Shown here piece after piece: positions 7,049-40,483 of a stretch of 64,000 nucleotides of DNA. Source of the stretch: a virus (lineage: Duplodnaviria; Caudoviricetes); the IMG/VR virus record IMGVR_UViG_3300008262_000013; one strand, written 5' to 3'. The notes below the pieces were generated by a model. That model was not told where the DNA came from, searched no databases, and was given only the letters and a program-made list of their open reading frames with translations. Numbering within the stretch: position 1 is the first letter of the stretch; each line of letters opens with the position of its first letter. The position numbers were made by a program, and so were the translations under genes.

Positions 7049-7056
7049 TATTTATA
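7049..7056 (-). promoter_or_regulatory. T4-type late promoter (TATAAATA) upstream of gp2
   Basis: Exact TATAAATA on the - strand, 4 nt before the gp2 ATG. Confidence 0.75.
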
Positions 7057-27437: not shown

Positions 27438-30400
27438 ATGCCTACTTCACTAATACCAATTATTGCCAGAACTAACACTATCGATGAGTGGAGAATTCAA
27501 ACTAATAAATCTGCTACAGATTTAAATGATCTTGGATTCTACACCTACGATAAAGCTCAAGGCACATTACTACTCTCGGGTACCTCCCTATTAAGTATAA
27601 CAGCTGAAGGAACACCGTTACAAGTAGCTAACAATGTTTTATTTCAAAGTAGTTTGACTCTTGGTAATACTCTTTTCTTAGGCATTCAATCTTCAGCAAC
27701 TGGTAATATTATTGCTGGTGGAACAATATCAGTTAGGGGTCCAGGACAATCTCTAAACGTGGCGAATAGTGTTTACGTGGGTAGAGACCTGCAAATTGTT
27801 CAAAATGTTTATACCAGTAATGTTATTGTAAATACTGACATAACCATAGCAAATAATTTAACTGTAACAACAGGAAAATTACGATTGAATGGATCTGGAA
27901 ATGTATCCTATATTAATACAGGTTCTTCTTTTACTAAAACGCTATATTCCGATCAAGTATATTCAACAAATGTAAGCACTGCAAACCTATATGCTTTATA
28001 TGCTAAAGTTGATGTTTTAGATGATTTGTCTTTTGCTAGAATTATTACTTTAGATAATACTACTACAAATTCTCATATATTAAAAACTAATGCCGCTACT
28101 TCAAATTTTTTAACAACTAAAAATTTAATAGCCAATGTAACAGCGAACATTGTAAATTTAGAATCGAATGTTGCTGTAATTAACGTAGCAACAATAATTG
28201 ATGGTAATGTAGTATCTCTAGTTTCAAACAATTCTACAATAAACATTTCTACCGTAAATACTTCTACGATATTGACTGGTAATGTAGTTTCATTAGTTTC
28301 AAACAATTCTATTTTAAATAATTCCACTGTAAATACATCTACGGTGTTGGTTGGTAATGTAGTAACACTTACTTCAAATAGTTCTACTATAAATGTTGCT
28401 AGTATCAATTTAGCTTCGATTAATACTTTAACGACATGGAATATAACTTCCACAAATAGAATTACAGGAAATAGTATTGTAACAAATAATATCGTTTCTT
28501 CTACAATTAATACATCTATTTTAAATGTCACATCAAACTTATGGATGAGTACTGGTTCTTTAACAAGAATTTTTGCACCGAATGATCAGCACGAATCTTT
28601 GACTGTTGATGGTAAAACTACTTTAAGAACTGCATTAATTACTAGTAATTTAACTGTTGAAGGAACTTGGACAGCTCTAGGTGATATTGAGTATGAAGTT
28701 GGTGAAATAATTTTAAATAAGAGAACACCAACAAACGCTGAAGCGACATTTAGAAATGAAAGACCTATAGGTGATGATGCGTTAATTAGATGGAATGAAG
28801 CTGATGATAGATGGACTATTTCGAGAGGAAATACATATTCTTCCCTCTATGGAATTTTGGATGATAGTTTCTTAAGTTCATCAATAAACAGCACAAGTAC
28901 TTCAAATGTTGCAACTTCTTTAGCTGTGAATACAGCCCATTTTGTTGCACAGACTTCGGGTATGTACGCTAACTCAGCATTTGCCGCACAGAATACAACA
29001 GGTAGTTATGCTAACTCAGCTTATGCTCAAGCAAATTTAGCATTTACCGCGGGAGGTGTTATAGCTGGAAGTTATGCCAATTCGGCTTATCATACAGCTA
29101 ATAGTGGATCATCATATGCGAATTCAGCTTTCACCCATGCAAATTCATCATTCATTCAAGCCAACACACCATCGCATGTAGCAAATTCTGCAGCACTTTA
29201 TGCAAATGGTGCGTTCTTAAGGGCAAATACACCAACACATGTTGCAAACTCCGCGTCACTTTATGCCAATGCGGCTTTCTCTAAAGCCAATACAGTTGCT
29301 ACTGATTTAAATGACGTTGCTATTTCTACGGCTACAGCTGTACATACTTCAAGTTCTGCATCATTATATGCTAATGGAGCTTTCGCTAAAGCTAATAATT
29401 CTTCAGACGCTGTAGCTTTAGATAAAGCTACTTCTGGATCTGCATATGCTAACTCTGCATTTGCAGCAGCTAATAATGCTGTGCAGAAAGTTGCTCCTAC
29501 ACAGACGATTACTGGTGATCTTACTATAACCCGTAGATTAAATACTGCAAATCTTCAATTTGACGGAGATAGTGCTAGATATTTTGGTTCCAATTTTGTA
29601 TTTAATTCGGATTTAAATCCAAATACATCTCCAGGTGAAAATGCTGCTATACAAGTTTATCGAGGAACTAATGCCTCTCCTGCTACATTCCAATGGAATG
29701 AAACATTAGATAAGTGGCAATTTGAAGATGGTGTAAATGGTTTACATAATTTGGAAGAATTTGCCAATAAAGCAAATAATATTACTGGTGGTGCAACTAA
29801 TAAAATTCCATATCAAACAAACACTAGTGCAACACAATTCATTGATGCTCCTGCTGTTGCTAATCGTTTCTTAAAGTGGACAGGAACCGAGTTTACTTGG
29901 GCGGATGTTCCTGCTGCTGATTTAAATAATTTAAATGCTACCAATTTAACTTCTGGTACTGTGCCGAGTGGTAGACTAACCGGTACTTATAGTATAAACA
30001 TCAATGGAACAGCATCATCAGCATGTACTGCAACTACTGCTAGTTCGGCAACTAGTGCTACAAATGCTACAAATGTTATTGATGGTGGAACTGTTCACAC
30101 AAACACTATAAGATGTGATGATTTTGCAAATTTCTATTCGAACGTATTTTTTAGAAGTGGTGGAACAACAACGTCTAGAACTGACCCAAGTAATTTAGCT
30201 GCTTTAAAAGTTACTGGTGATGTTGCTGTTTCTAATGAAGTTTGGGCACTTCAGTTTCAAGGTGTCGCAGTGCGAGCCCTTTACGCTGACTTGGCTGAAA
30301 AATATTTGTCCGATAAAAAATATCCTACAGGTACCATAATGATGGTTGGTGGCAAAAAAGAAGTTACTGCAGCAAAAGACACCAAAAAACACGCTATCAT

Positions 30401-30650
30401 CGGAATCGTATCGGAGAAACCAGCATACGTAATGAATAATGACTTGAAAAATGGTTTAATAGTTGGACTTAAAGGTCGATTACCTGTTAGAATAATTGGT
30501 ACTTGTGAAAAGGGTGATTTAATTACTGTATCTGAAAAGTCTGGTGTAGGTATTTCTATAAAAGAAAATGTAATTTTACCATTTAGAATTATTGCTTTAG
30601 AAAATAAAGAAACTGAAGAAGAAGGTTTAATAGAAGTAGTTATTATGTAA
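27438..30650 (+). CDS. Tail fibre with C-terminal autocleaving intramolecular chaperone (peptidase G2-like)
   Basis: N-terminal TNTIDEWRIQTN; YANSAF-type repeats; two WNE-containing modules; C-terminal ALYADLAEKY...GIVSEKPAY...GLKGRLPVR. Confidence 0.8.
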   Translation: MPTSLIPIIARTNTIDEWRIQTNKSATDLNDLGFYTYDKAQGTLLLSGTSLLSITAEGTPLQVANNVLFQSSLTLGNTLFLGIQSSATGNIIAGGTISVRGPGQSLNVANSVYVGRDLQIVQNVYTSNVIVNTDITIANNLTVTTGKLRLNGSGNVSYINTGSSFTKTLYSDQVYSTNVSTANLYALYAKVDVLDDLSFARIITLDNTTTNSHILKTNAATSNFLTTKNLIANVTANIVNLESNVAVINVATIIDGNVVSLVSNNSTINISTVNTSTILTGNVVSLVSNNSILNNSTVNTSTVLVGNVVTLTSNSSTINVASINLASINTLTTWNITSTNRITGNSIVTNNIVSSTINTSILNVTSNLWMSTGSLTRIFAPNDQHESLTVDGKTTLRTALITSNLTVEGTWTALGDIEYEVGEIILNKRTPTNAEATFRNERPIGDDALIRWNEADDRWTISRGNTYSSLYGILDDSFLSSSINSTSTSNVATSLAVNTAHFVAQTSGMYANSAFAAQNTTGSYANSAYAQANLAFTAGGVIAGSYANSAYHTANSGSSYANSAFTHANSSFIQANTPSHVANSAALYANGAFLRANTPTHVANSASLYANAAFSKANTVATDLNDVAISTATAVHTSSSASLYANGAFAKANNSSDAVALDKATSGSAYANSAFAAANNAVQKVAPTQTITGDLTITRRLNTANLQFDGDSARYFGSNFVFNSDLNPNTSPGENAAIQVYRGTNASPATFQWNETLDKWQFEDGVNGLHNLEEFANKANNITGGATNKIPYQTNTSATQFIDAPAVANRFLKWTGTEFTWADVPAADLNNLNATNLTSGTVPSGRLTGTYSININGTASSACTATTASSATSATNATNVIDGGTVHTNTIRCDDFANFYSNVFFRSGGTTTSRTDPSNLAALKVTGDVAVSNEVWALQFQGVAVRALYADLAEKYLSDKKYPTGTIMMVGGKKEVTAAKDTKKHAIIGIVSEKPAYVMNNDLKNGLIVGLKGRLPVRIIGTCEKGDLITVSEKSGVGISIKENVILPFRIIALENKETEEEGLIEVVIM
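28206..28430 (+). repeat. Three 75-nt (25-aa) coding repeats NVVSLVSNNSTINxSTVNTSTxxxG
   Basis: Units start at 28206, 28281 and 28356. Confidence 0.8.
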
Positions 30651-30653
30651 ATT

Positions 30654-31388
30654 ATGATTGGAATTATTGGTTATGGAATGGTTGGACAAGCCGTTGAATA
30701 CGGCTTTTCCAAAACCCAAGTTTTCGTTTGTGATCCGAAATATAATCACGTAACGGTCAAAGGCCTCTGTTTATTAAATCCAGAGGCAATATTCGTTTGT
30801 GTCCCCACACCAACAGACGATACTAATTATTCATTGGTTACTTCAGTATTGAATGAAATTTTCGAGATGAACTATCAGGGAATAGTTATAGTAAAGTCCA
30901 CAATTTTGCCGCAATATCTTGAAAAATATGATATTGTGTATAACCCAGAATTTCTATCAAGATCAACCTCGAAAGAAGATTTTGTAAATCCACACTTATT
31001 AATACTTTCTGGTAAAAAATCTCAACAGGCTTTGGAACTTTATAAAAAACATTCTACCGTAGATACTGAAAATATTTTTGTAACAGATATTAATACAGCA
31101 TCATTTATAAAATACACCATGAATTCCTTTTATGCAACTAAGGTAACTTTTATGAACTCTATGTATGAGGTTGCTAAAAAAATGGGTGTCGATTATAATG
31201 AAGCTATAACTGTTCTCTCTAAACATCCATGGATGGGATCCAATCATTTCAAAGTACCTGGTCCTGATGGTAAAAAAGGATTTGGTGGGCCTTGTTTACC
31301 AAAAGACACAGAGTGTTTAGTTAAAAATTATGATGTTGAAATACTTAAAAAAGTTTTGGAATTAAATCAAAAGTTTAGAAATGAATAA
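30654..31388 (+). CDS. UDP-glucose/GDP-mannose dehydrogenase family protein (short form lacking the C-terminal domain)
   Basis: GIIGYGMVG, FVCVPTP, VKST, YNPEFL, KYTMNSFYATKVTFMN, catalytic GFGGPCLPKD. Confidence 0.9.
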   Translation: MIGIIGYGMVGQAVEYGFSKTQVFVCDPKYNHVTVKGLCLLNPEAIFVCVPTPTDDTNYSLVTSVLNEIFEMNYQGIVIVKSTILPQYLEKYDIVYNPEFLSRSTSKEDFVNPHLLILSGKKSQQALELYKKHSTVDTENIFVTDINTASFIKYTMNSFYATKVTFMNSMYEVAKKMGVDYNEAITVLSKHPWMGSNHFKVPGPDGKKGFGGPCLPKDTECLVKNYDVEILKKVLELNQKFRNE

Positions 31389-31456: not shown

Positions 31457-32563
31457 ATGGTAGTAGATATAAACGTAACAAGTATCTGCAATTTAGCTTG
31501 CACATATTGTTCCGAAGGTTTTGAATGTGGACTATCTACCGAGTTTGAAGAAAATACTTCTTTGACATTAGATAATGTTGAAGAATTTATGGCTAAAATT
31601 TCTGATCCCAAAAAAGATGTTTATTTCTGGGGTGGTGAACCATTTGTTAATTGGGATTTTTGTAAAGGTGTCATAGAAAAATTTAAACATGATCCTGGTT
31701 TTTCTTTTTTCTTTTATACAAATGGAACGTATTTAAAGAGATATTTAAAAGATTTGGTTAGAATTCACAATGAGATTCCCGGTAGATTAAAGTTGCAGGT
31801 TTCATATGATGGAAAGCCTGTAAACGACATCGCCAGAGTGACTAAATCTGGTACTCCATCGTCAGCAATGGTCAAAGCAAACTATATTGCAGCTAAAGAA
31901 GCTGGATTGAATGTTTCACTGAAATCTGTACTAACGTCTGAAAATTTCCACTTAATCTATGAAGCCTTTTTGGATGTCATAGAAATGGATAAAAATTATT
32001 TTCCAACACCAGATTTATACAGCCAATTGACAGAAGAAGAATTTATGCCTAAATTGGAAGTATTAAAGGATGGATTGAAGAAAATTGCTAAACATATTTA
32101 CGAAAATAAATTACCTCCTGAGAAGTTTGGATGGTTCCAACAATCTAGAGCTCTATGTGCAGCAGGTATAAATTACGTAAGTGTTGATTTAAACGGCGAT
32201 TTGAGTCCTTGCCATGGATGCATGTACAAAGAATCGCATTCACATAAATTAGGAAATATTTTTAAAGTTGCAGATTTGGATCAGTTGATTGAAGAAAAAT
32301 CTCAAATGTATAAGGATGCGTTGAAGAATCAACCTTTAGATTGTATGAACTGTGACAGTCAATTCTGTATGAAATGTAATGCGGCAACTTATGAAAAATC
32401 AGAAAAAGAAACATATCTAGAAAAATGGAGTGATCATACAGCAAATTGGCAAGTCTGTAAAGTATTTAAGACAAACGAGATAGTACATCACGCATTAAGA
32501 ACTGCACTAAAGAGTTATAAAAAGCCTGTAATTAAAATTCAGGCTGAACAGTGTACAGTATAA
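31457..32563 (+). CDS. Radical SAM/SPASM peptide-maturase-like enzyme
   Basis: CNLACTYC (CX3CX2C), FWGGEP; SPASM CAAG...DLSPCHGC...CMNC...CMKCNA...VC. Confidence 0.92.
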   Translation: MVVDINVTSICNLACTYCSEGFECGLSTEFEENTSLTLDNVEEFMAKISDPKKDVYFWGGEPFVNWDFCKGVIEKFKHDPGFSFFFYTNGTYLKRYLKDLVRIHNEIPGRLKLQVSYDGKPVNDIARVTKSGTPSSAMVKANYIAAKEAGLNVSLKSVLTSENFHLIYEAFLDVIEMDKNYFPTPDLYSQLTEEEFMPKLEVLKDGLKKIAKHIYENKLPPEKFGWFQQSRALCAAGINYVSVDLNGDLSPCHGCMYKESHSHKLGNIFKVADLDQLIEEKSQMYKDALKNQPLDCMNCDSQFCMKCNAATYEKSEKETYLEKWSDHTANWQVCKVFKTNEIVHHALRTALKSYKKPVIKIQAEQCTV

Positions 32564-32572
32564 GGATAATAA

Positions 32573-33697
32573 ATGTTTACATTAGAAGTAAGTGTTACTG
32601 AAAAGTGTAATCTAGGTTGTCCGTATTGTTATGTGGCAAACAGACCAACTTGGATGACGAAAGAAGTTTTTGATCAGGGTATGAAAGACCTGCCAAAATT
32701 AATGCAAAGGTCCGGTGATAAAGATTATCATGTAAGTTTTTTTGGTGGTGAACCTTTATTAAATTGGGACCTAATAACTCACGCTGTTCCTTATTTAAGA
32801 TCGGATGATAAATGTAAAGGTATTAATATCATCACAAATTTAACGATGATTGATCAAGATAAAGCTAATTATTTGAGAAATAATGGTGTTGGCGTTTCTT
32901 GGTCTTTTGATGGTATGAGTTCTAATGAGAGTAGACCTTTACTTCCACTTTTGGAAAATACTAATCCAGAAACAGGCGAATTGTTTGATGGTATACTTTC
33001 GATGTATGAATATAAGAAAGATATCATAAAGAATTTGACAAACGGATGTAAGGTCATGATATGGCCAGGAAATACAAAAGACATGAAAGAGAATTTTGAA
33101 TTTCTCTTAGATTGGGGTATAGATCATCCCGATTTTAGTATTGTTCGTGATGATGTTTGGACAGAAGATGATATAATACAGTTTAGATATGAATGTGAAA
33201 GACTTGCAGATTTTTGGATAGAAAAGATAAAATCTGGTAAACCATGTTCAGTAGGATTTTTAAAACTAGCTATTTTAGATATTCTCTATGGTTTAGTGAA
33301 AGGTAAAAGACCTTTTGGTTGTTTTGCTGGAACTAATGGTGGAGTATTGATGAGTTCTGGGGAATTCTACCCTTGCGCTAGGTTTGCATCCAAAAAAATT
33401 ATGAAAATGGATGAACAGTATAATTTTAGGTACTATCAAGACATTTTTAATCCAAAAAATTATGATAAATGTGAACCGTGTGATTTGAAACAGGTGTGTA
33501 ATGCCGGTTGTACATATTCTCAAATTATGAATGATAATAAACCATTAGATAGTATTTGTGAATTGTTCCACATATATTATGAACAAGCAATGCGAGTGGT
33601 AGATGAGTGTAAAGACGAAAGAGTTTTCCAAGATTTGGTTTTAAATTATATCGAAAATGTTGGTGTTGAAAATGAAGGTGTGGAGTGTAGGAACTAA
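32573..33697 (+). CDS. Radical SAM/SPASM peptide-maturase-like enzyme
   Basis: CNLGCPYC, FFGGEPLL; SPASM CFAG...GEFYPCARF...CEPC...VCNAGC...ICELF. Confidence 0.93.
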   Translation: MFTLEVSVTEKCNLGCPYCYVANRPTWMTKEVFDQGMKDLPKLMQRSGDKDYHVSFFGGEPLLNWDLITHAVPYLRSDDKCKGINIITNLTMIDQDKANYLRNNGVGVSWSFDGMSSNESRPLLPLLENTNPETGELFDGILSMYEYKKDIIKNLTNGCKVMIWPGNTKDMKENFEFLLDWGIDHPDFSIVRDDVWTEDDIIQFRYECERLADFWIEKIKSGKPCSVGFLKLAILDILYGLVKGKRPFGCFAGTNGGVLMSSGEFYPCARFASKKIMKMDEQYNFRYYQDIFNPKNYDKCEPCDLKQVCNAGCTYSQIMNDNKPLDSICELFHIYYEQAMRVVDECKDERVFQDLVLNYIENVGVENEGVECRN

Positions 33698-33698
33698 C

Positions 33699-34547
33699 AT
33701 GAAAATTGTTTCTTGCACCAGTCAAGATAAAATTCTTAGAATTAACTGGCATATATTAAATTGGTGTAATTTAAAATGTTCCTACTGTAATGTAAAGGAA
33801 CATTTGAGTTATGATTATAATGATAATACTCAAATTTCAAATAATTATAAATTGATTATAAGTAGATTAAAAACTATTTCTAAACCTTTTGAGATTTGTT
33901 TGACTGGTGGGGAACCAACATTACATCCCAATATCGAAGATATATTAAGTGGATTAAATGAAATTGAAAATTTAACTAAAATTTATTTTTTTACTAACTT
34001 AACTAGATCAGAAAATTTTTATAAAAATATAAAAAGTTTTTCGAAAGTTACATATTACGCATCCTTTCACCCCGAATATCACAAAGAAGATTTTTTAGAT
34101 AAGTGTAAAAATCTAAACTGTGAGGTTCATATAAGTATGATGCCTGAATATAAAAATTACATTTTAAAAATTATTGATAAGTGTAAGTTGGAGGATATAA
34201 AATTTACATTAAATTTTTTAAGAGACACAAAATATTATTCAAGTAATTTAGAAGAAGATTTTTTCGTAGAAGCTTCTACTGCTGAATCTATGATTGATAT
34301 GGATGTTTTATATGATAATGGCTTTCGAGAAAATACTACAAATTTAAGATTATTATACGATAAAAAAAATAATTTCAAAGGCTATAAATGTTTACCGGAA
34401 TCTTTTCAAATAGAATTAAATAATGTAGTTAAAAATGTTTGCACTAACGAAATTATGCCATTATCTTTAAAAGATATTACGAAAAAGGTTATTTGTCCAA
34501 AAGAAGTTTGTGAAGGTGGACTTATGATGTATCCTAAGGAAATTTAA
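33699..34547 (+). CDS. Radical SAM enzyme with short Cys-containing (twitch-like) C-terminus; start re-assigned to ATG 33699
   Basis: CNLKCSYC, LTGGEPTLHP, ASFHPE; C-terminal YKC...NVC...ICPKEVC. Confidence 0.88.
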   Translation: MKIVSCTSQDKILRINWHILNWCNLKCSYCNVKEHLSYDYNDNTQISNNYKLIISRLKTISKPFEICLTGGEPTLHPNIEDILSGLNEIENLTKIYFFTNLTRSENFYKNIKSFSKVTYYASFHPEYHKEDFLDKCKNLNCEVHISMMPEYKNYILKIIDKCKLEDIKFTLNFLRDTKYYSSNLEEDFFVEASTAESMIDMDVLYDNGFRENTTNLRLLYDKKNNFKGYKCLPESFQIELNNVVKNVCTNEIMPLSLKDITKKVICPKEVCEGGLMMYPKEI

Positions 34548-34876
34548 TGAAGAAAAATTTTAAAAGTATTGTATCTATACCTATTAAAGTTGAGATGCAA
34601 CCAGTTGAACATCAAAGCAATAAAGTTTTGACTGTTGATGATTTGTCGAAACAAATAGAAGAAGCTAAAAAGGGAAAAGCCAAAGTCGATAGTAAGTATG
34701 TAGGATTTGAACTGACTGAGAGAGGACATTTATTCGAATATAAATTTGATTATGTTAAATTTTTGGACAATATGTCATTCATAATCAAAACGGCAAAACA
34801 GCGTAAAGAAATGAATCCTAATAATGTCTATACAATGGATAAAACTAAAAGTGCTAGACGAAAAAAAGAAATATGA
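34547..34876 (+). CDS. Hypothetical protein (basic) within the radical SAM operon
   Basis: 109-aa ORF coupled by overlaps on both sides. Confidence 0.6.
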   Translation: MKKNFKSIVSIPIKVEMQPVEHQSNKVLTVDDLSKQIEEAKKGKAKVDSKYVGFELTERGHLFEYKFDYVKFLDNMSFIIKTAKQRKEMNPNNVYTMDKTKSARRKKEI

Positions 34877-35766
34877 ACGCCGAAACTTTCAAAAAAAAGT
34901 ATCCTCAAATAAATTTTTATGTAGGACATGAAACGGATAAAACTGTAACTAAAGATTCGGGAGTAAATGTATTATATTTCACAAATAAATGTAATTTAGC
35001 TTGTACATATTGTTATGAAGATTTGCCTGGTCGCCCTCCACAAATTTTGTCTAAAGAAGATATTAAAAAAAGTATCGATAGAGTTATAGAAAGAGAAGAT
35101 CCCAATAGTCAAACATTATTTGTTCTTTTTGGTGGAGAAGCTACTATGGAATGGGATAATGTTTGTTATGCCATGAATTATGCCTATACAAAAAAGAAAA
35201 ATGTTCATTTTAATTTAAACACAAATGGCATAAGATACCTAAAACAAAGTTTTATAGAGGAAACAAAAAACAATTTTTTTTATAAAAAAAACTTGTTAAG
35301 TATAGACGTTAGTTTTGACGGTATAGGAAATTCGGATAGAGTCACACACGGCGGCAAGGATTCAACTAATTTAATGATCCAAGTTTTCAGAAATTTGAGA
35401 AAAAACGCAATGAAATTTAGGATAAGATACACCATACATCACAAAAACGTTCATAATTGCTATGAAGATATGTCCAATATTATTAGATATTTTAAACCAA
35501 CCCGTCTTATAACATCCGTTGCGTGGGAAACTCTCAATAAAATTCAAATTGACTTGCTCCAAAACATGAAAGAAAGTCTCAGGAAAGATTGGATAAATAG
35601 GATAATTGATGTTCCAGTTTGTGAGTTATTTTGTGACATGTGTGATGGATGTGGTGAGAGAAAGGAAGTAAAAACTTATTTTACTGACGAGGGTAATGTA
35701 ACCACATATGGTAATTATGAGAACTCCCCGAAATTTCATGATTTTAAAGAAAAGGTAATAATATGA
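34873..35766 (+). CDS. Radical SAM enzyme with C-terminal Cys cluster
   Basis: CNLACTYC, LFGGEATM, TNG, VSFDG; C-terminal CELFCDMCDGC. Confidence 0.9.
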   Translation: MNAETFKKKYPQINFYVGHETDKTVTKDSGVNVLYFTNKCNLACTYCYEDLPGRPPQILSKEDIKKSIDRVIEREDPNSQTLFVLFGGEATMEWDNVCYAMNYAYTKKKNVHFNLNTNGIRYLKQSFIEETKNNFFYKKNLLSIDVSFDGIGNSDRVTHGGKDSTNLMIQVFRNLRKNAMKFRIRYTIHHKNVHNCYEDMSNIIRYFKPTRLITSVAWETLNKIQIDLLQNMKESLRKDWINRIIDVPVCELFCDMCDGCGERKEVKTYFTDEGNVTTYGNYENSPKFHDFKEKVII

Positions 35767-36155
35767 GCACTGATAGAGAAATTGTAATTGAAAAGTTAAC
35801 GAGTATTTCACAAAATATTAAAGAGATATCGGAATATGATGAAGGCCTCGCCAACTTAATTTGGATAGGTTTTGACACAGCTATGAGTTTAGCACAATCT
35901 ATTTCTGAAAATAATGAGAAAAAGGAACAAATTGATATTTCTGTTTACATTCAACAAATTTGTGATGCTTTGGGTGTTGATATTGAACAAATGGTTTTAT
36001 CAATTATTCAAAATAACAATACTCAAGAATCTAGTAATAAAGAGCCGGACTTGGAAACTTTAGACTTTATAACATCCGATCTTGATGACTATGAAAAGTT
36101 TTTAGCAAAAAGTTCAGCAAAAAATAATTTAGATTTTTTATCAAAGGAAATATAA
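35763..36155 (+). CDS. Hypothetical acidic helical protein directly upstream of the Cys-repeat gene
   Basis: 130-aa ORF with ATGA overlap; no motif recognised. Confidence 0.6.
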   Translation: MSTDREIVIEKLTSISQNIKEISEYDEGLANLIWIGFDTAMSLAQSISENNEKKEQIDISVYIQQICDALGVDIEQMVLSIIQNNNTQESSNKEPDLETLDFITSDLDDYEKFLAKSSAKNNLDFLSKEI

Positions 36156-36156
36156 G

Positions 36157-36765
36157 ATGGCTTTAGGTAAAATGTTTGACACTACTCTTGGAGTAGGTAC
36201 TAACACAACTCCTGCTGGTGAACATAAAAGGCTATCAATAACTATACAAGGAACTGTTGGTAGTAATGCAGTGAATTATGATCTTGCGAATGTTGTAGCT
36301 GGAGAGGATTTAATAACTAGATCGTTTTTTCAATCGCTGCTTGATAAAGCAAAAGAAGAAAATACGAGAAGGGGAGGCAGCGCCACTAAAGGTTCGTTAT
36401 CAACAACAAACATTAGAGCTGCCGACTTTAATAATATCCGAGCACTTTTTGCTGTTGCCGATTCTAGGACAAATCAAGTTTATAATGATTGGTCTGGTGC
36501 AAATGCTAATTTGCCTAATGGTCCGACAGTAAATAGTCCCACAATAACAACCTTTCCTACTACTGCTGCACCAACTGGTGTTCCAGCAGCAGTTACCACA
36601 GATCCAGCAACTCAAATTAGAGCTACAATTCTGAATTCTCTCATTAATGCTTTGAATTCTGCTGGGCAAGTTTGCACCTGTAATTGTAATTATTGTACTT
36701 GTAATTGCAATTATTGTACATGTAACTGTAATTACGCATGTACCTGCAACTGTAATTACTCCTAA
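36157..36765 (+). CDS. Protein with a C-terminal Cys-rich repeat (CTCNCNY)x4; candidate radical SAM substrate
   Basis: No Cys in the first 172 aa, then 12 Cys in the last 30 aa; AAGGA RBS; embedded among radical SAM genes. Confidence 0.8.
   Translation: MALGKMFDTTLGVGTNTTPAGEHKRLSITIQGTVGSNAVNYDLANVVAGEDLITRSFFQSLLDKAKEENTRRGGSATKGSLSTTNIRAADFNNIRALFAVADSRTNQVYNDWSGANANLPNGPTVNSPTITTFPTTAAPTGVPAAVTTDPATQIRATILNSLINALNSAGQVCTCNCNYCTCNCNYCTCNCNYACTCNCNYS
36673..36762 (+). repeat. Four 21-nt coding repeats for CTCNCNY (one Ala inserted before the fourth)
   Basis: Amino-acid identity with varied synonymous codons (tgc/tgt, acc/act/aca, aat/aac, tat/tac). Confidence 0.92.
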
Positions 36766-36776
36766 TTAAAAATATT

Positions 36777-37238
36777 ATGTTTTTTCAACTAAATCATTTA
36801 GAAGAAACCAATATGTCTTACATAAGACATTTTAATCATGGAATAAGATTGGGATCTTGGTTATTTTTGTGTTCCATCATTTTTTTAATTTATTGTCTTT
36901 TCTCTTTAAAATTTTTAGAAAACTTTGTGATAGCACGAATAAACACAATGTATCATGGATTAATGTTGCGATGGTTTGAAGATGAAACATTTAATCGTGG
37001 AAAACCAGAAAAAGATGTTTTAGAAGAAAAGAAATATAAAAAGCAGTATGTAAAATTGATCGAAGATGGAATGATAAATCCTTTCAATAAAGTTAAAATA
37101 TTTAATGGACTGTTAATTGCATCCATTACTAGTATAACACATTCTTTTATACCACAAATATTTGTGCATCATGCTGCCACCAATGTAATAAGATTATATT
37201 TTAATTATAAAATAATGGAGAAATTAAATGAAAAATGA
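36777..37238 (+). CDS. Hypothetical protein with hydrophobic helices (DUF6356-like)
   Basis: SYIRHFNHGIRLGSWLFLCSIIFLIY and SITHSFIPQIF...AATNVIRLY resemble the DUF6356 pattern; assignment tentative. Confidence 0.45.
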   Translation: MFFQLNHLEETNMSYIRHFNHGIRLGSWLFLCSIIFLIYCLFSLKFLENFVIARINTMYHGLMLRWFEDETFNRGKPEKDVLEEKKYKKQYVKLIEDGMINPFNKVKIFNGLLIASITSITHSFIPQIFVHHAATNVIRLYFNYKIMEKLNEK

Positions 37239-37632
37239 TAGAGTTGAAATTGAAGGTATTGATGCGAATACTTATGCTGGAAAAGCAATTAATGCATGTA
37301 AGTTAAAAGCAAGAGGAATTTTTGGAGATGAACTTTTAACTTTTAAACTTTTGGATTTTGTAAGTTTTTTAATGTTAAATAATGAATTTACGTCAAAAGG
37401 TTATTTTATTAGTGAACATAATAGGGAAGAAATTTATATAAAAATTATAGAAACTGGTGATATACAATTAATAAATGATTTGGAAAAATATATTAATCTT
37501 AGAGATTCTATAAAAGAATTACAAAGAAAAAAAGATGAATTTTACGATATTATTGAAAAATTAAATAATTTATCAAACTTGAATGATGAAACGAGTGTTA
37601 ATGAAATTGTAGAGTCTTATCTAAGGAGATAA
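37228..37632 (+). CDS. Hypothetical helical protein
   Basis: 134-aa ORF overlapping the upstream gene; no motif recognised. Confidence 0.6.
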   Translation: MKNDRVEIEGIDANTYAGKAINACKLKARGIFGDELLTFKLLDFVSFLMLNNEFTSKGYFISEHNREEIYIKIIETGDIQLINDLEKYINLRDSIKELQRKKDEFYDIIEKLNNLSNLNDETSVNEIVESYLRR

Positions 37633-38631: not shown

Positions 38632-39510
38632 GTGTCTTTAGTAAATCTGAGAAACTATGATTTAGTTATAACTACTTCATTTGGTTTCAAATTTGGAATT
38701 TGTGGTCATTTATTTGAAATGATTGAATATTATTGGGCTATAAAAAATTGGACAAATCTAAATCCTTGTATACTATTGTCCGATGGTACTACAATAGACG
38801 AATTTAATATAGCTTTAAACACGAAATATGATAATCTAGTTGTTGAAAATTTAATATACCATCCTTTTCCAAAACTATTATTGTCAAAAAATTTATTGAT
38901 AGTTGACGGATCTTCAAGACTTGATAATTCGGAAATATATACAGATAATTTTTTTCTATTCAGATGTCATGAAAAAAATTATGACTTTTATATAAACAAT
39001 AAAGCGCAATGTCACTTATTTCAAGATTTTGAAATATATGATGATATTCCTAAAAAAATAAATGTTTTTGATTATAAGAAAAAATTATTATATTCAAAAT
39101 TTAAAAAAATAAATGATGATGTAGAAAATTCTGTAATGTTTTATTTGACAGATGTTAGTAGATTTATGTCTGAAGAAACAATAACTGAAATTTCCAATAA
39201 ATATTCTTTCAACAACACAGTAGTATTTACAAATAAACCAGAACTTTATACAAAAATAAAAACATATAAAGTTCCAGTCCCAGACATGTGGAATAAATTT
39301 TCTACATATGTTTATACTAAATTACCTGGCAAAAAAGATTGTTCCAATAGATTTATTTTAGAGTGTATGCACTATGATAAAGAAGTTGTTTATGATATAG
39401 ATTATTATGATAAAGCTTTAGAAATTAGAAAAAAGGATGGAATAAAAAATACATCTTTAGAACAAGGTGATTTTTTTATCAATTATATCAATGAACAAAT
39501 TAAGTGTTAA
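38632..39510 (+). CDS. Hypothetical protein, possibly glycosyltransferase-like (GTG start)
   Basis: GICGHLFEMIEYY, YVYTK...DCSNRFILECMHYDKEV weakly resemble a GT-B C-terminus. Confidence 0.4.
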   Translation: MSLVNLRNYDLVITTSFGFKFGICGHLFEMIEYYWAIKNWTNLNPCILLSDGTTIDEFNIALNTKYDNLVVENLIYHPFPKLLLSKNLLIVDGSSRLDNSEIYTDNFFLFRCHEKNYDFYINNKAQCHLFQDFEIYDDIPKKINVFDYKKKLLYSKFKKINDDVENSVMFYLTDVSRFMSEETITEISNKYSFNNTVVFTNKPELYTKIKTYKVPVPDMWNKFSTYVYTKLPGKKDCSNRFILECMHYDKEVVYDIDYYDKALEIRKKDGIKNTSLEQGDFFINYINEQIKC

Positions 39511-40483
39511 AAAAATACTGATAGATTATGATAGACCTATTAACAATAGAGCTAAATTAGATACTGGTAAACTCTGTAATTATAAATGTGAATTTTGTTA
39601 CTATAAAAATAGTTTGTCTGAGAGAGATGAACTTGATAAAATCTACAAAAGAATAGATTATTTACTTGACTATGGCATAAAAGAAATCGATCTTAGTGGT
39701 GGTGAAAGTAGTGTAGAACCGAATTGGTTTAATATATTAAATTATTGCCAAAATAAATTTGATAGAATTAGTTGCCTTAGTCACGGAGGTAAATTTAGTG
39801 ATAAAGAATTTATTCAAAAAAGTTTCGACTTAGGTTTAAGAGAGATACTCTTTAGTCTACATTGTACGGATGAAAGTGTTCATGATAAAATTGTAGGCAA
39901 AAAAGGAGCTTTTAAAAATTTAATTAAAGCTATTGAGAACTCCCACCGTTTAAATATTGAAGTTAGATTGAACACAACTGTATATCATGAAAACTACAAT
40001 AAAATAGACACTTCTTTTATAAAATCTTTAAACCCCACCCAAGTTAATTTTATTGCTCTCAATTATTGGAGAGACAATAAAGATTTTTATCCTATTGATT
40101 ACGGAACAATTTGTTCCTATGTTTCAAATTATATTGATGACCTTAAGGACTCAACCGAAGTTAATGCTAGATATTTTCCTTATTGTTTTATGCCATCAAA
40201 AGAAAAATATATAAAAAACCATTATCATCATATATATGACTTTAAAGATTGGAATAAAGCGGTTTATAGTGGAACATTAGACACTAAAAAAAATTATACG
40301 CACAATGAAAAAGTAGAACATTCTTTCTCTGAAGCGGAACGAATGAGAATTTATAGTTACTTTAAAACCGAAGAATGTACAAAGTGTAAATATTTTTATA
40401 TATGTGATGGTATAGAAAATGAACTTAAAGATAAAGTTAGTCCAAATCCTGTTTTTGGAGAAAAGATAAGATTAATATGGTAA
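39491..40483 (+). CDS. Radical SAM enzyme with C-terminal CxxC-x5-C
   Basis: CNYKCEFC, LSGGE, FSLH...HDKIVG..GAF, YFPYCFM, CTKCKYFYICDG. Confidence 0.9.
   Translation: MNKLSVKKILIDYDRPINNRAKLDTGKLCNYKCEFCYYKNSLSERDELDKIYKRIDYLLDYGIKEIDLSGGESSVEPNWFNILNYCQNKFDRISCLSHGGKFSDKEFIQKSFDLGLREILFSLHCTDESVHDKIVGKKGAFKNLIKAIENSHRLNIEVRLNTTVYHENYNKIDTSFIKSLNPTQVNFIALNYWRDNKDFYPIDYGTICSYVSNYIDDLKDSTEVNARYFPYCFMPSKEKYIKNHYHHIYDFKDWNKAVYSGTLDTKKNYTHNEKVEHSFSEAERMRIYSYFKTEECTKCKYFYICDGIENELKDKVSPNPVFGEKIRLIW

Follow-up and report, generated by a model that had tools for sequence, protein, structure and literature searches.

CteB (PDB 5WGG) and PapB are radical S-adenosylmethionine (rSAM) enzymes with a full SPASM domain, which act on Cys-rich peptides of about 45 amino acids (aa) and link Cys to carbons of Thr or Asp by thioethers. 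In the QhpD/QhpC system, an rSAM/SPASM enzyme places several Cys-to-Asp/Glu thioethers in the gamma subunit of quinohemoprotein amine dehydrogenase, and the product stays in a larger assembly. In phage fibres of the S74 type, which carry a self-cleaving intramolecular chaperone (Peptidase_S74) at the C-terminus, such as the K1F endosialidase and pb1, the L-shaped fibre of T5, cleavage before a Ser leaves the preceding segment as the distal C-terminus of the trimer. The gp38-type adhesins (PF05268; S16 gp38, PDB 6F45) are small, and their genes follow those of the long fibres in T4-like myoviruses. In Campylobacter phage CP220 the gp140 region was recorded merely as the sole intragenic 21-bp repeat, and 11–12 rSAM genes in CP220 and CPt10 were left unexplained (Timms et al., 2010; PMC2853527). 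Here we analysed a gene cassette at positions 31457–36765 of a 64-kb stretch of viral DNA (the window), a piece of the 96-kb IMG/VR record IMGVR_UViG_3300008262_000013, which is ~58% complete. Judged by its gp32, gp48, baseplate wedge gp6/7/8-type and large fibre genes, the phage is a T4-like myovirus. The cassette encodes four rSAM enzymes (rS1 to rS4), two small proteins and a 202-aa protein that ends in four Cys-rich heptads, and we consider it fairly probable that it is a conserved phage module for a tail-fibre tip protein that is modified after translation.

The 202-aa protein (36157–36765; all features lie on the plus strand unless stated otherwise) has no Cys before residue 173. Then follow 12 Cys in four CTCNCNY units (36673–36759, defined by the sequence and a heptad logo), which we propose as the site of modification. 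Ala precedes the fourth unit, and Ser and the stop codon follow the last. The four copies diverge at synonymous sites only (TGC/TGT, ACC/ACT/ACA, AAT/AAC, TAT/TAC). A protein search of metagenomes yielded 554 homologues, of which the best 120 were used for detailed statistics. Exactly four units with a near-invariant C-T-C-N-C-N-Y sequence were found in 118 of these 120. The tail is not a product of chance, because it is kept in this way despite N-domains that are merely 35–50% identical. An earlier reading of this DNA made from the letters alone (the sequence-only reading) had described 12 Cys confined to the last residues in four codon-diversified heptads, and this description holds. More distant viral relatives carry 3 to 28 units, with N, D or Q at position 4 and Y, less often H, at position 7. 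We also observed a 252-aa protein (L064:9779–10537) in which an unrelated N-terminus is combined with about 20 CTCDCNYx units of eight residues. It is flanked by fibre-like proteins with S74-type C-termini; the fragment of 43.8 kb on which it lies is 23% complete and contains no rSAM gene.

To place the motif among organisms, we scanned with a degenerate DNA pattern for two consecutive heptads, which matched 32 IMG/VR contigs. Among 185,579 prokaryote species (one genome each), the same pattern matched 3 contigs only, all short phage-type contigs of metagenome-assembled genomes (MAGs). The heptad motif is therefore restricted to phage. A tblastn search of GenBank phages with the 202-aa protein gave no match, though the DNA search and the pattern scan found relatives; this blank is probably due to the low-complexity filter and to the divergence of the N-domains. 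In an AF2 model of the monomer, the N-domain (residues 1 to ~172) reached a predicted local distance difference test (pLDDT) score of 80–95 and showed three helices, each with an I-x-A-x-x-F-N-x-L motif, plus a hairpin, and the heptad tail was disordered. From the homologues, the AF2 model and hhalign we take this domain as a putative three-helix anchor module. An amphipathic helix lies immediately before the heptads (residues 156–170, 36622–36666; I-x-A-x-x-x-N-x-L-I...N-x-A-G). It has a high pLDDT, and I154, N160 and G170 are nearly invariant in this region of the homologue alignment, which makes it a candidate enzyme-recognition element or neck. The BARA domain, a pseudo-threefold beta-alpha-repeat, was a non-significant match to this N-domain with its three similar helix motifs. 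We speculate from the model that a trimeric fibre tip could have as its cap one monomer of internally threefold character.

The family shows several features of tail-fibre proteins. In 99 of the 120 closest homologues, a sequence of the SDxxxKxN type follows the last heptad without a gap: 55 have the SDx(R/K)(L/V/I)K form with which an S74 domain begins, some of them as 12-residue remnants, and 44 have a related continuation, mostly as 12-residue remnants. The other 21 stop within two residues of the last heptad, as the window copy does. Homologues P0007 and P0034 matched Pfam Peptidase_S74 with 34.8 and 27.6 bits (cut-off 22), and position 1 of the profile is the Ser after the last heptad. 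On contigs of 346 kb and 364 kb, copies with S74 are part of the same cassette. In P0025, P0028 and ~40 other homologues we observed a 12-residue S74 remnant of the SDERVKSNIEYM type, in which the dyad Ser and Lys are kept and the rest of the domain is gone. A profile of the N-domain run against 1.84 billion representatives found 114 clusters, 87 of them with heptads. Two proteins, P0300 and P0291, share the N-module without heptads (hhalign probability 96.8%, E = 2.4e-10, residues 4–92). From residue 99 they continue as a Pfam GP38 adhesin domain (47.5 and 33.8 bits; cut-off 25), and they carry the PHROGs label 'tail fiber protein; host specificity'. Because the same N-module precedes GP38 in these two proteins, the heptads occupy the adhesin-domain slot of their relatives. 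The N-module proteins without heptads P0300, P0293 and P0283 are encoded on contigs of at most 2.2 kb, and the window protein had no Pfam match at all, GP38 included. Fibre genes of 2079 aa and 1070 aa precede the cassette in the window, and large fibre genes likewise precede it in other loci. The S74 fusions, the GP38-type N-module and this neighbourhood favour a tail-fibre tip protein rather than a peptide precursor.

The seven open reading frames (ORFs) of the cassette are packed in the order rS1, rS2, rS3, s109, rS4, s130 and the Cys-heptad gene. Translational coupling of the genes follows from their intergenic spacing, which is only -4 (overlap) to +9 nt. This map agrees exactly with the four CX3CX2C enzymes and two small ORFs that the sequence-only reading had placed in a coupled operon ending in the 202-aa protein. 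All four enzymes exceed the Pfam Radical_SAM (PF04055) cut-off of 29.5 bits: rS1 (31457–32563, 368 aa) scored 59, rS2 (32573–33697, 374 aa) 47.2, rS3 (33699–34547, alternative start 33657; phrog_13987) 43.8 and rS4 (34873–35766) 47.4 bits. The CX3CX2C motif lies at residues 11–18, 12–19, 23–30 and 40–47, respectively. Two enzymes have complete SPASM Cys sets, as had been claimed. In rS1, with 8 C-terminal Cys, Pfam SPASM (PF13186) scored 21.6 bits, marginally over the cut-off of 21.5. In rS2 the canonical seven Cys (C250, C268, C300, C303, C309, C313 and C329, with CX2CX5CX3C) are invariant in 14 diverse orthologues. A full SPASM domain by PF13186/TIGR04085 has a C-terminal seven-Cys motif (CX9–15GX4C ... 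CX2CX5CX3C ... C) that serves two auxiliary 4Fe-4S clusters; the short rS3, like rS4, falls below it, with four C-terminal Cys only. Both C-termini are twitch-like, and that of rS4, CX3CX2CX2C at 250, 254, 257 and 260, may be a partial SPASM or a twitch domain.

PapB (NF047865, equivalog cut-off 340 bits) was the best NCBIfam match of rS1 (78.5 bits), rS2 (132.2) and rS4 (79.9, covering the N-terminal two thirds of the enzyme). SCIFF (TIGR03974, cut-off 425) scored 49–87 bits, with 87 for rS2, the CXXX-repeat family (TIGR04115, cut-off 350) 37–56 and QhpD (TIGR03906, cut-off 453) 52–78. The CcpM maturase was also among the top matches of rS1, rS2 and rS4, below its family cut-off. The nearest solved structure was CteB, matched by rS2 with E = 6.7e-18. 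The alignment of rS1 and rS2 to CteB starts at CteB residue 101, from which it follows that the phage enzymes have no recognition element (RRE) of the kind used for peptides that are made on ribosomes and modified after translation (RiPPs). By sequence, rS1 and rS2 are closest to peptide/protein thioether maturases and not to sugar or nucleotide rSAMs. The sequence-only reading had likewise seen relatives of rSAM/SPASM peptide maturases, and of the profiles it had pointed to, PF13186 is just reached by rS1, but TIGR04115 stays far from its cut-off.

We then compared the surroundings of the Cys gene across phages, using phmmer with the window proteins against six-frame ORFs of loci with 10-kb flanks. 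In nearly all of the 32 contigs found with the heptad pattern, orthologues of rS1, rS2 or rS4 adjoin the Cys gene. The order in marine T4-like phages is UDP-sugar dehydrogenase, rS1, rS2, s109, rS4, s130, one to four Cys proteins and p134, a gene just beyond the cassette. In distant clades it is shrunk to rS2-(rS4)-rS1-Cys-p134 or rS4-Cys-p134. Across divergent phages rS1 is the rSAM most tightly linked to the Cys gene, lying immediately 5' of it in L004, L014, L018, L021, L023–25 and L057–60, and rS2 is the most conserved enzyme of the cassette. Orthologues of the rSAM genes were found within 10 kb in 28 of the 31 IMG/VR loci with a Cys protein. For the reverse test, rS2 orthologues were defined by at least 30% identity and distant rSAMs by at most 28%, and loci were counted when a gene within 10 kb had three heptads or more. 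Such a gene was present in 24 of 33 rS2-orthologue loci and in none of 46 distant-rSAM loci. Most of the nine misses are explained by a broken gene (L077), variant repeats (L099 and L105), contig ends or a gene elsewhere (CPt10 and L097). The linkage between Cys gene and rSAM genes is thus strong and specific in both directions. The sequence-only reading had named frequent homologues without rSAM genes as the result that would speak against it, and the loci show the opposite.

Some of the exceptional loci have features of their own. L077:12638–13097 holds an N-terminal fragment and a complete S74 domain in another frame; what is missing is the central part with the heptads, and the rSAM genes and p134 are intact. 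The loss may have come about by deletion or by assembly collapse of the repeat. Variant Cys repeats lie beside more distant rS2 relatives at L099:12397–12894, L103:9549–9974 and L102:12145–13551. Their grammars are CTCNVD; CxCxCD followed by R, Q or N; and a single CVCNCNY plus degenerate units. Judging from these sequences, the pairing of enzyme and repeat may extend beyond the CxCxCNY type.

An alternative to enzymatic modification can be drawn by analogy with other phage tips, in which HxH iron sites are known (T4 gp37 and the P2 and phi92 spike tips). The heptads would then bind metal or pack through disulfides as the core of a trimeric fibre tip without enzymatic crosslinks, and the rSAMs would act on a sugar, nucleotide or cofactor, being co-located in an accessory region only. 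We regard this as unlikely. The 7–8-residue period and the alternate Cys would fit the strands of a triple beta-helix with one face inward, as extrapolated from spike structures, and the S74 fusions imply a trimeric fibre. The cassette also adjoins a nucleotide-sugar dehydrogenase gene and a large region of sugar and rSAM genes, but the heptad gene is linked specifically with the rS1, rS2 and rS4 clades across very different phages, including Campylobacter phages that have no marine sugar region. Indeed, we rejected a tie of the rSAMs to the adjoining sugar genes because the heptad linkage persists in phages without that region. The kinship of rS1 and rS2 to thioether maturases likewise fits poorly with a sugar or nucleotide substrate. 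Three loci do hold the heptad gene amid tail-fibre genes with no rSAM gene on the contig, as this alternative would predict, but these records are fragments only 9–23% complete. A counterpart of the Cys-heptad protein exists in cultivated phages.

Among isolated phages, rS2 orthologues (37% identity) occur in Firehammervirus only (CP220, CPt10, CP21, IBB_35 and others), and no other isolates have DNA that matches the heptad region. The Firehammervirus protein (gp140, CPT_0180 or gene 3-9) resembles the window protein in its CxC(D/N)CNY heptads, in a similar helix before them and in the presence of rS1 and rS2 orthologues in the genome. In CP220, gp140 has 535 aa with six to seven CxC(D/N)CNY units, and the rS1 orthologue lies 2 kb downstream. 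The pre-heptad helix is the sole part outside the repeats in which the two proteins are alike. Unlike in the window protein, the repeats of gp140 stand in mid-protein, and CxC motifs are scattered over the ~200 aa after them; the Firehammervirus rSAM genes are dispersed, in contrast to the single operon in the window. In IBB_35, gene 3-9 (1605 bp, 60,318 Da) was among 38 virion proteins detected by electrospray ionization tandem mass spectrometry (PMC3322345, Table S2); it carries seven CxCDCNY units. We also observed gp140-like heptad proteins at L071:57–1619 (521 aa) and L072:3481–5985 (835 aa), on MAG contigs binned as Alphaproteobacteria and Anaeromicropila, respectively, so that this architecture is not confined to Campylobacter phages. 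The long 'leader' of the 202-aa protein had been guessed to be displayed on the virion, and the S74 fusions, the N-domain shared with GP38 proteins, the fibre neighbourhoods and the virion detection in IBB_35 support this guess.

These observations also bear on whether the locus encodes a classical RiPP, in which the N-domain would serve as a leader of unusual length and the 30-residue Cys peptide, once modified, would be released as a small bioactive product, for instance against competitors or to manipulate the host. The enzyme set does resemble sactipeptide and ranthipeptide clusters, and the conserved helix just before the core is reminiscent of a leader recognition motif. Moreover, tandem Cys-heptad paralogues with divergent N-domains and an identical tail lie behind a single rSAM set at L009:4685–7282 (four copies), L015:7389–9455 (three), and L014 and L048 (two each). 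One to four paralogues after one enzyme set are the pattern expected of several substrates for one set of maturases, as several tandem precursors would be. However, in these proteins the tail is constant and the N-domain variable, which is the reverse of leader/core behaviour. By Pfam, PHROG and synteny, neither a leader protease nor an exporter belongs to the conserved cassette, and S74, the sole protease domain of the family, cuts after the core and not before it. The N-domain folds confidently in the AF2 model and is common to GP38 adhesin proteins, and the Campylobacter counterpart was detected in virions, which a released peptide would not explain. The locus thus departs from a classical RiPP, in which an RRE (PqqD-like) domain recognises the leader of a short precursor and a protease removes it to release a small product; an RRE was not found in the enzymes or in the p134 model. 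The N-region is a predicted folded domain of ~170 aa; that it is unusually long was correctly noted before, but it is better termed an anchor domain than a leader. We hold a released peptide to be quite improbable. Very improbable indeed is a Cys tail that serves as Fe-S cluster scaffold, carrier or electron donor for the many rSAMs (5–18 genes per phage record) and is neither substrate nor virion part: its twelve clustered Cys could ligate Fe-S clusters, but searches of Pfam and NCBIfam showed no resemblance to IscU, NifU, ferredoxin or A-type carriers, and S74 fusion, GP38-type N-module, fibre neighbourhoods and virion detection do not suit a cytoplasmic cofactor carrier.

For the modified tip protein, we propose the following course of events. 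The N-terminal three-helix domain would be the anchor, which other phages fuse to a gp38-type adhesin domain, and the (CTCNCNY)x4 tail would take the distal, adhesin position. Each heptad offers three Cys and the plausible acceptors Thr2, Asn/Asp4 and Asn6, plus Tyr7. Acceptors of the Thr, Asn/Asp and Tyr types are known from CteB, PapB/QhpD and NxxC-type enzymes, and it is because the heptad holds Cys together with these types that we propose thioether stapling. The CteB/PapB/QhpD-like enzymes rS1, rS2 and rS4, which lack an RRE, probably act, together with s109, s130 and p134, on the Cys tail while it is still unfolded. Most likely they would form thioethers in which the sulfur of Cys is bonded to a carbon of a neighbouring Thr, Asn/Asp or Tyr. 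Stapling by up to three enzymes would take place before or during assembly and would give a covalently stapled, very stable tip. In most relatives the S74 chaperone would then assemble the protein and cleave itself off at Tyr|Ser, so that the heptads become the free C-terminus; the window copy would already end where this cleavage occurs. What we infer is that the enzymes act on the tail, that they form thioethers, that the events follow this order and that the protein sits at the fibre tip. The chances seem to us evenly balanced that phages in this way apply RiPP-type rSAM chemistry to their own virion, with three rSAMs stapling the Cys-heptad tip of a gp38-like adhesin by thioether, possibly also other carbon-linked, crosslinks into a covalently locked receptor-binding or anchoring tip.

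Several results count against this proposal, in addition to the three fragments without rSAM genes. As every match to a named maturase is far below its cut-off, a reaction type cannot be transferred to the phage enzymes. An RRE was found neither in the enzymes, which begin at the rSAM motif, nor in p134, whose model is all-helical, and s109 and s130, either of which may yet be a stand-alone RRE, are without sequence-detectable fold relatives. The window protein itself has no S74 domain and ends one residue (Ser) past the last heptad. Its N-domain model gave no Foldseek match in the PDB, and the best VIA-align hit, the BARA domain with Z 6.3, is in the noise range. A homotrimer prediction with three copies and alignment A1 scored 0.00, which speaks neither for nor against trimerisation. 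The N-region of the Campylobacter protein has no detectable homology to that of the window protein, and the virion detection of gene 3-9 had a sequence coverage of 2.6% only (PMC3322345).

The small partner proteins are conserved to different degrees. Protein s109 (34547–34876) is syntenic between rS2 and rS4 in ~15 loci and has 12 invariant columns, which makes it a candidate accessory or recognition factor; it had no match in Pfam, PHROG, ESM Atlas or a profile search of PDB sequences. The small acidic s130 (35763–36155), encoded directly 5' of the Cys gene in the marine clade, is syntenic in at least 12 loci and showed no family or fold match in Pfam, PHROG or ESM Atlas. Homologues of p134 (37228–37632; phrog_25260) adjoin the Cys gene or genes in at least 21 loci, including distant ones, and always lie just downstream. 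By this conservation p134 is the most widely conserved non-enzyme partner of the Cys gene. It has 191 homologues with 57–92% identity, and its AF2 model (pLDDT 88) has five helices, with no fold match in PDB or BFVD and no usable one in ESM Atlas. As a candidate RRE, p134 was ruled out by its all-helical fold. Between the Cys gene and p134 lies p153 (36777–37238), a membrane-type small protein resembling DUF6356 (36.5 bits in Pfam). It gave one phmmer match only and is restricted to the closest relative (L027/L039), which places it outside the conserved core. The same probably holds for rS3, a lineage-specific insertion by its distribution: it sits between rS2 and s109 only in L029, L032, L068 and L069, the closest relatives of the window, and elsewhere its paralogues lie downstream of p134. 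The extent originally given to the cassette was therefore right for the core genes, but it included rS3 and stopped short of the conserved partner p134.

Upstream of the cassette, the 1070-aa tail-fibre protein (27438–30650) has PHROG tail-fibre and phrog_22593 matches and a C-terminal Peptidase_G2 IMC-like domain (Pfam, 25.3 bits; cut-off 25). It is followed by a truncated UDP-glucose/GDP-mannose dehydrogenase-like gene (30654–31388, 244 aa), identified by the Pfam UDPG_MGDP_dh central and N-terminal domains. A gene of this kind is a constant neighbour 5' of rS1 in the marine T4-like clade (L002, L009, L020, L029, L033, L036 and L038). Downstream, positions 39467–40483 encode rS5, an HxsC/NirJ-like rSAM, and onward to ~53 kb twitch-type rSAM paralogues are interleaved with sugar-modifying genes. 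A set of rS5, short rSAM and sugar genes also lies 3' of p134 in related loci and is, by its gene content, a second conserved module. A scan for promoters and terminators between 30 and 38 kb of the window gave no signal distinguishable from shuffled sequence. The T4-type late-promoter octamer TATAAATA was found at one site in 64 kb (7049–7056, minus strand), where shuffles expect ~16, and at least one copy was present in 100 of 100 shuffles of the window. This strong avoidance of TATAAATA suggests a functional signal in this phage.

Full-text literature searches found no paper that mentions the heptad motif or connects rSAM enzymes of phages with a fibre protein, in line with the sequence-only reading, which knew of no characterised system with this repeat. 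The enzymes are of a known kind; the type of substrate, the coupling to S74 and the phage setting are new. There is a substantial chance that this is the first RiPP-like modification of a virion protein. If our proposal is true, it would be the first enzymatically crosslinked, RiPP-like structural protein of a virus, widespread in marine T4-like phages and Campylobacter Firehammervirus. It would also mean that rSAM maturases of bacterial peptide natural products act on a protein of a virus particle, a new class of post-translational modification of virions. The many rSAM genes of Campylobacter group II phages, a puzzle since 2010 that were then assumed to serve host metabolism, would be explained. 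Host range and protein engineering would also be concerned, since the tail-fibre tip module would be new, compact and probably very stable and would come in hundreds of natural variants, and rSAM enzymology would gain new enzyme clades and a simple repetitive substrate. Since the Campylobacter phages can be cultivated, the idea of a stapled tip is directly testable.

In summary, the locus shares features with each of the described systems and differs from each of them. With CteB and PapB, their best sequence relatives, rS1 and rS2 share the radical SAM core and the full SPASM domain, and the Thr and Asp to which those enzymes link Cys also occur in the heptad. In contrast, the phage enzymes are without the ~100-aa N-terminal RRE, number three per cassette and are phage-encoded, and their putative substrate is a folded tail-fibre-type protein of ~200 aa instead of a short peptide. 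QhpD, among the top matches of rS1, rS2 and rS4, is likewise a modifier of a protein that stays in an assembly, but its bacterial periplasmic enzyme setting has no repeats and no virion, and its scores lie far below the family cut-off. Most members of the Cys family share with the S74 fibres the Ser...Lys motif directly after the heptads; unlike those fibres, the Cys-heptad proteins are very small (170–310 aa), and the window copy keeps the Ser only. We know of no S74 fibre with a Cys-heptad tip or associated rSAM enzymes. Like the gp38-type adhesins, the window protein is small and is encoded after long fibre genes in a T4-like myovirus; unlike in gp38, Cys heptads replace the polyglycine-rich receptor-binding domain in a protein that would be attached to a fibre tip.

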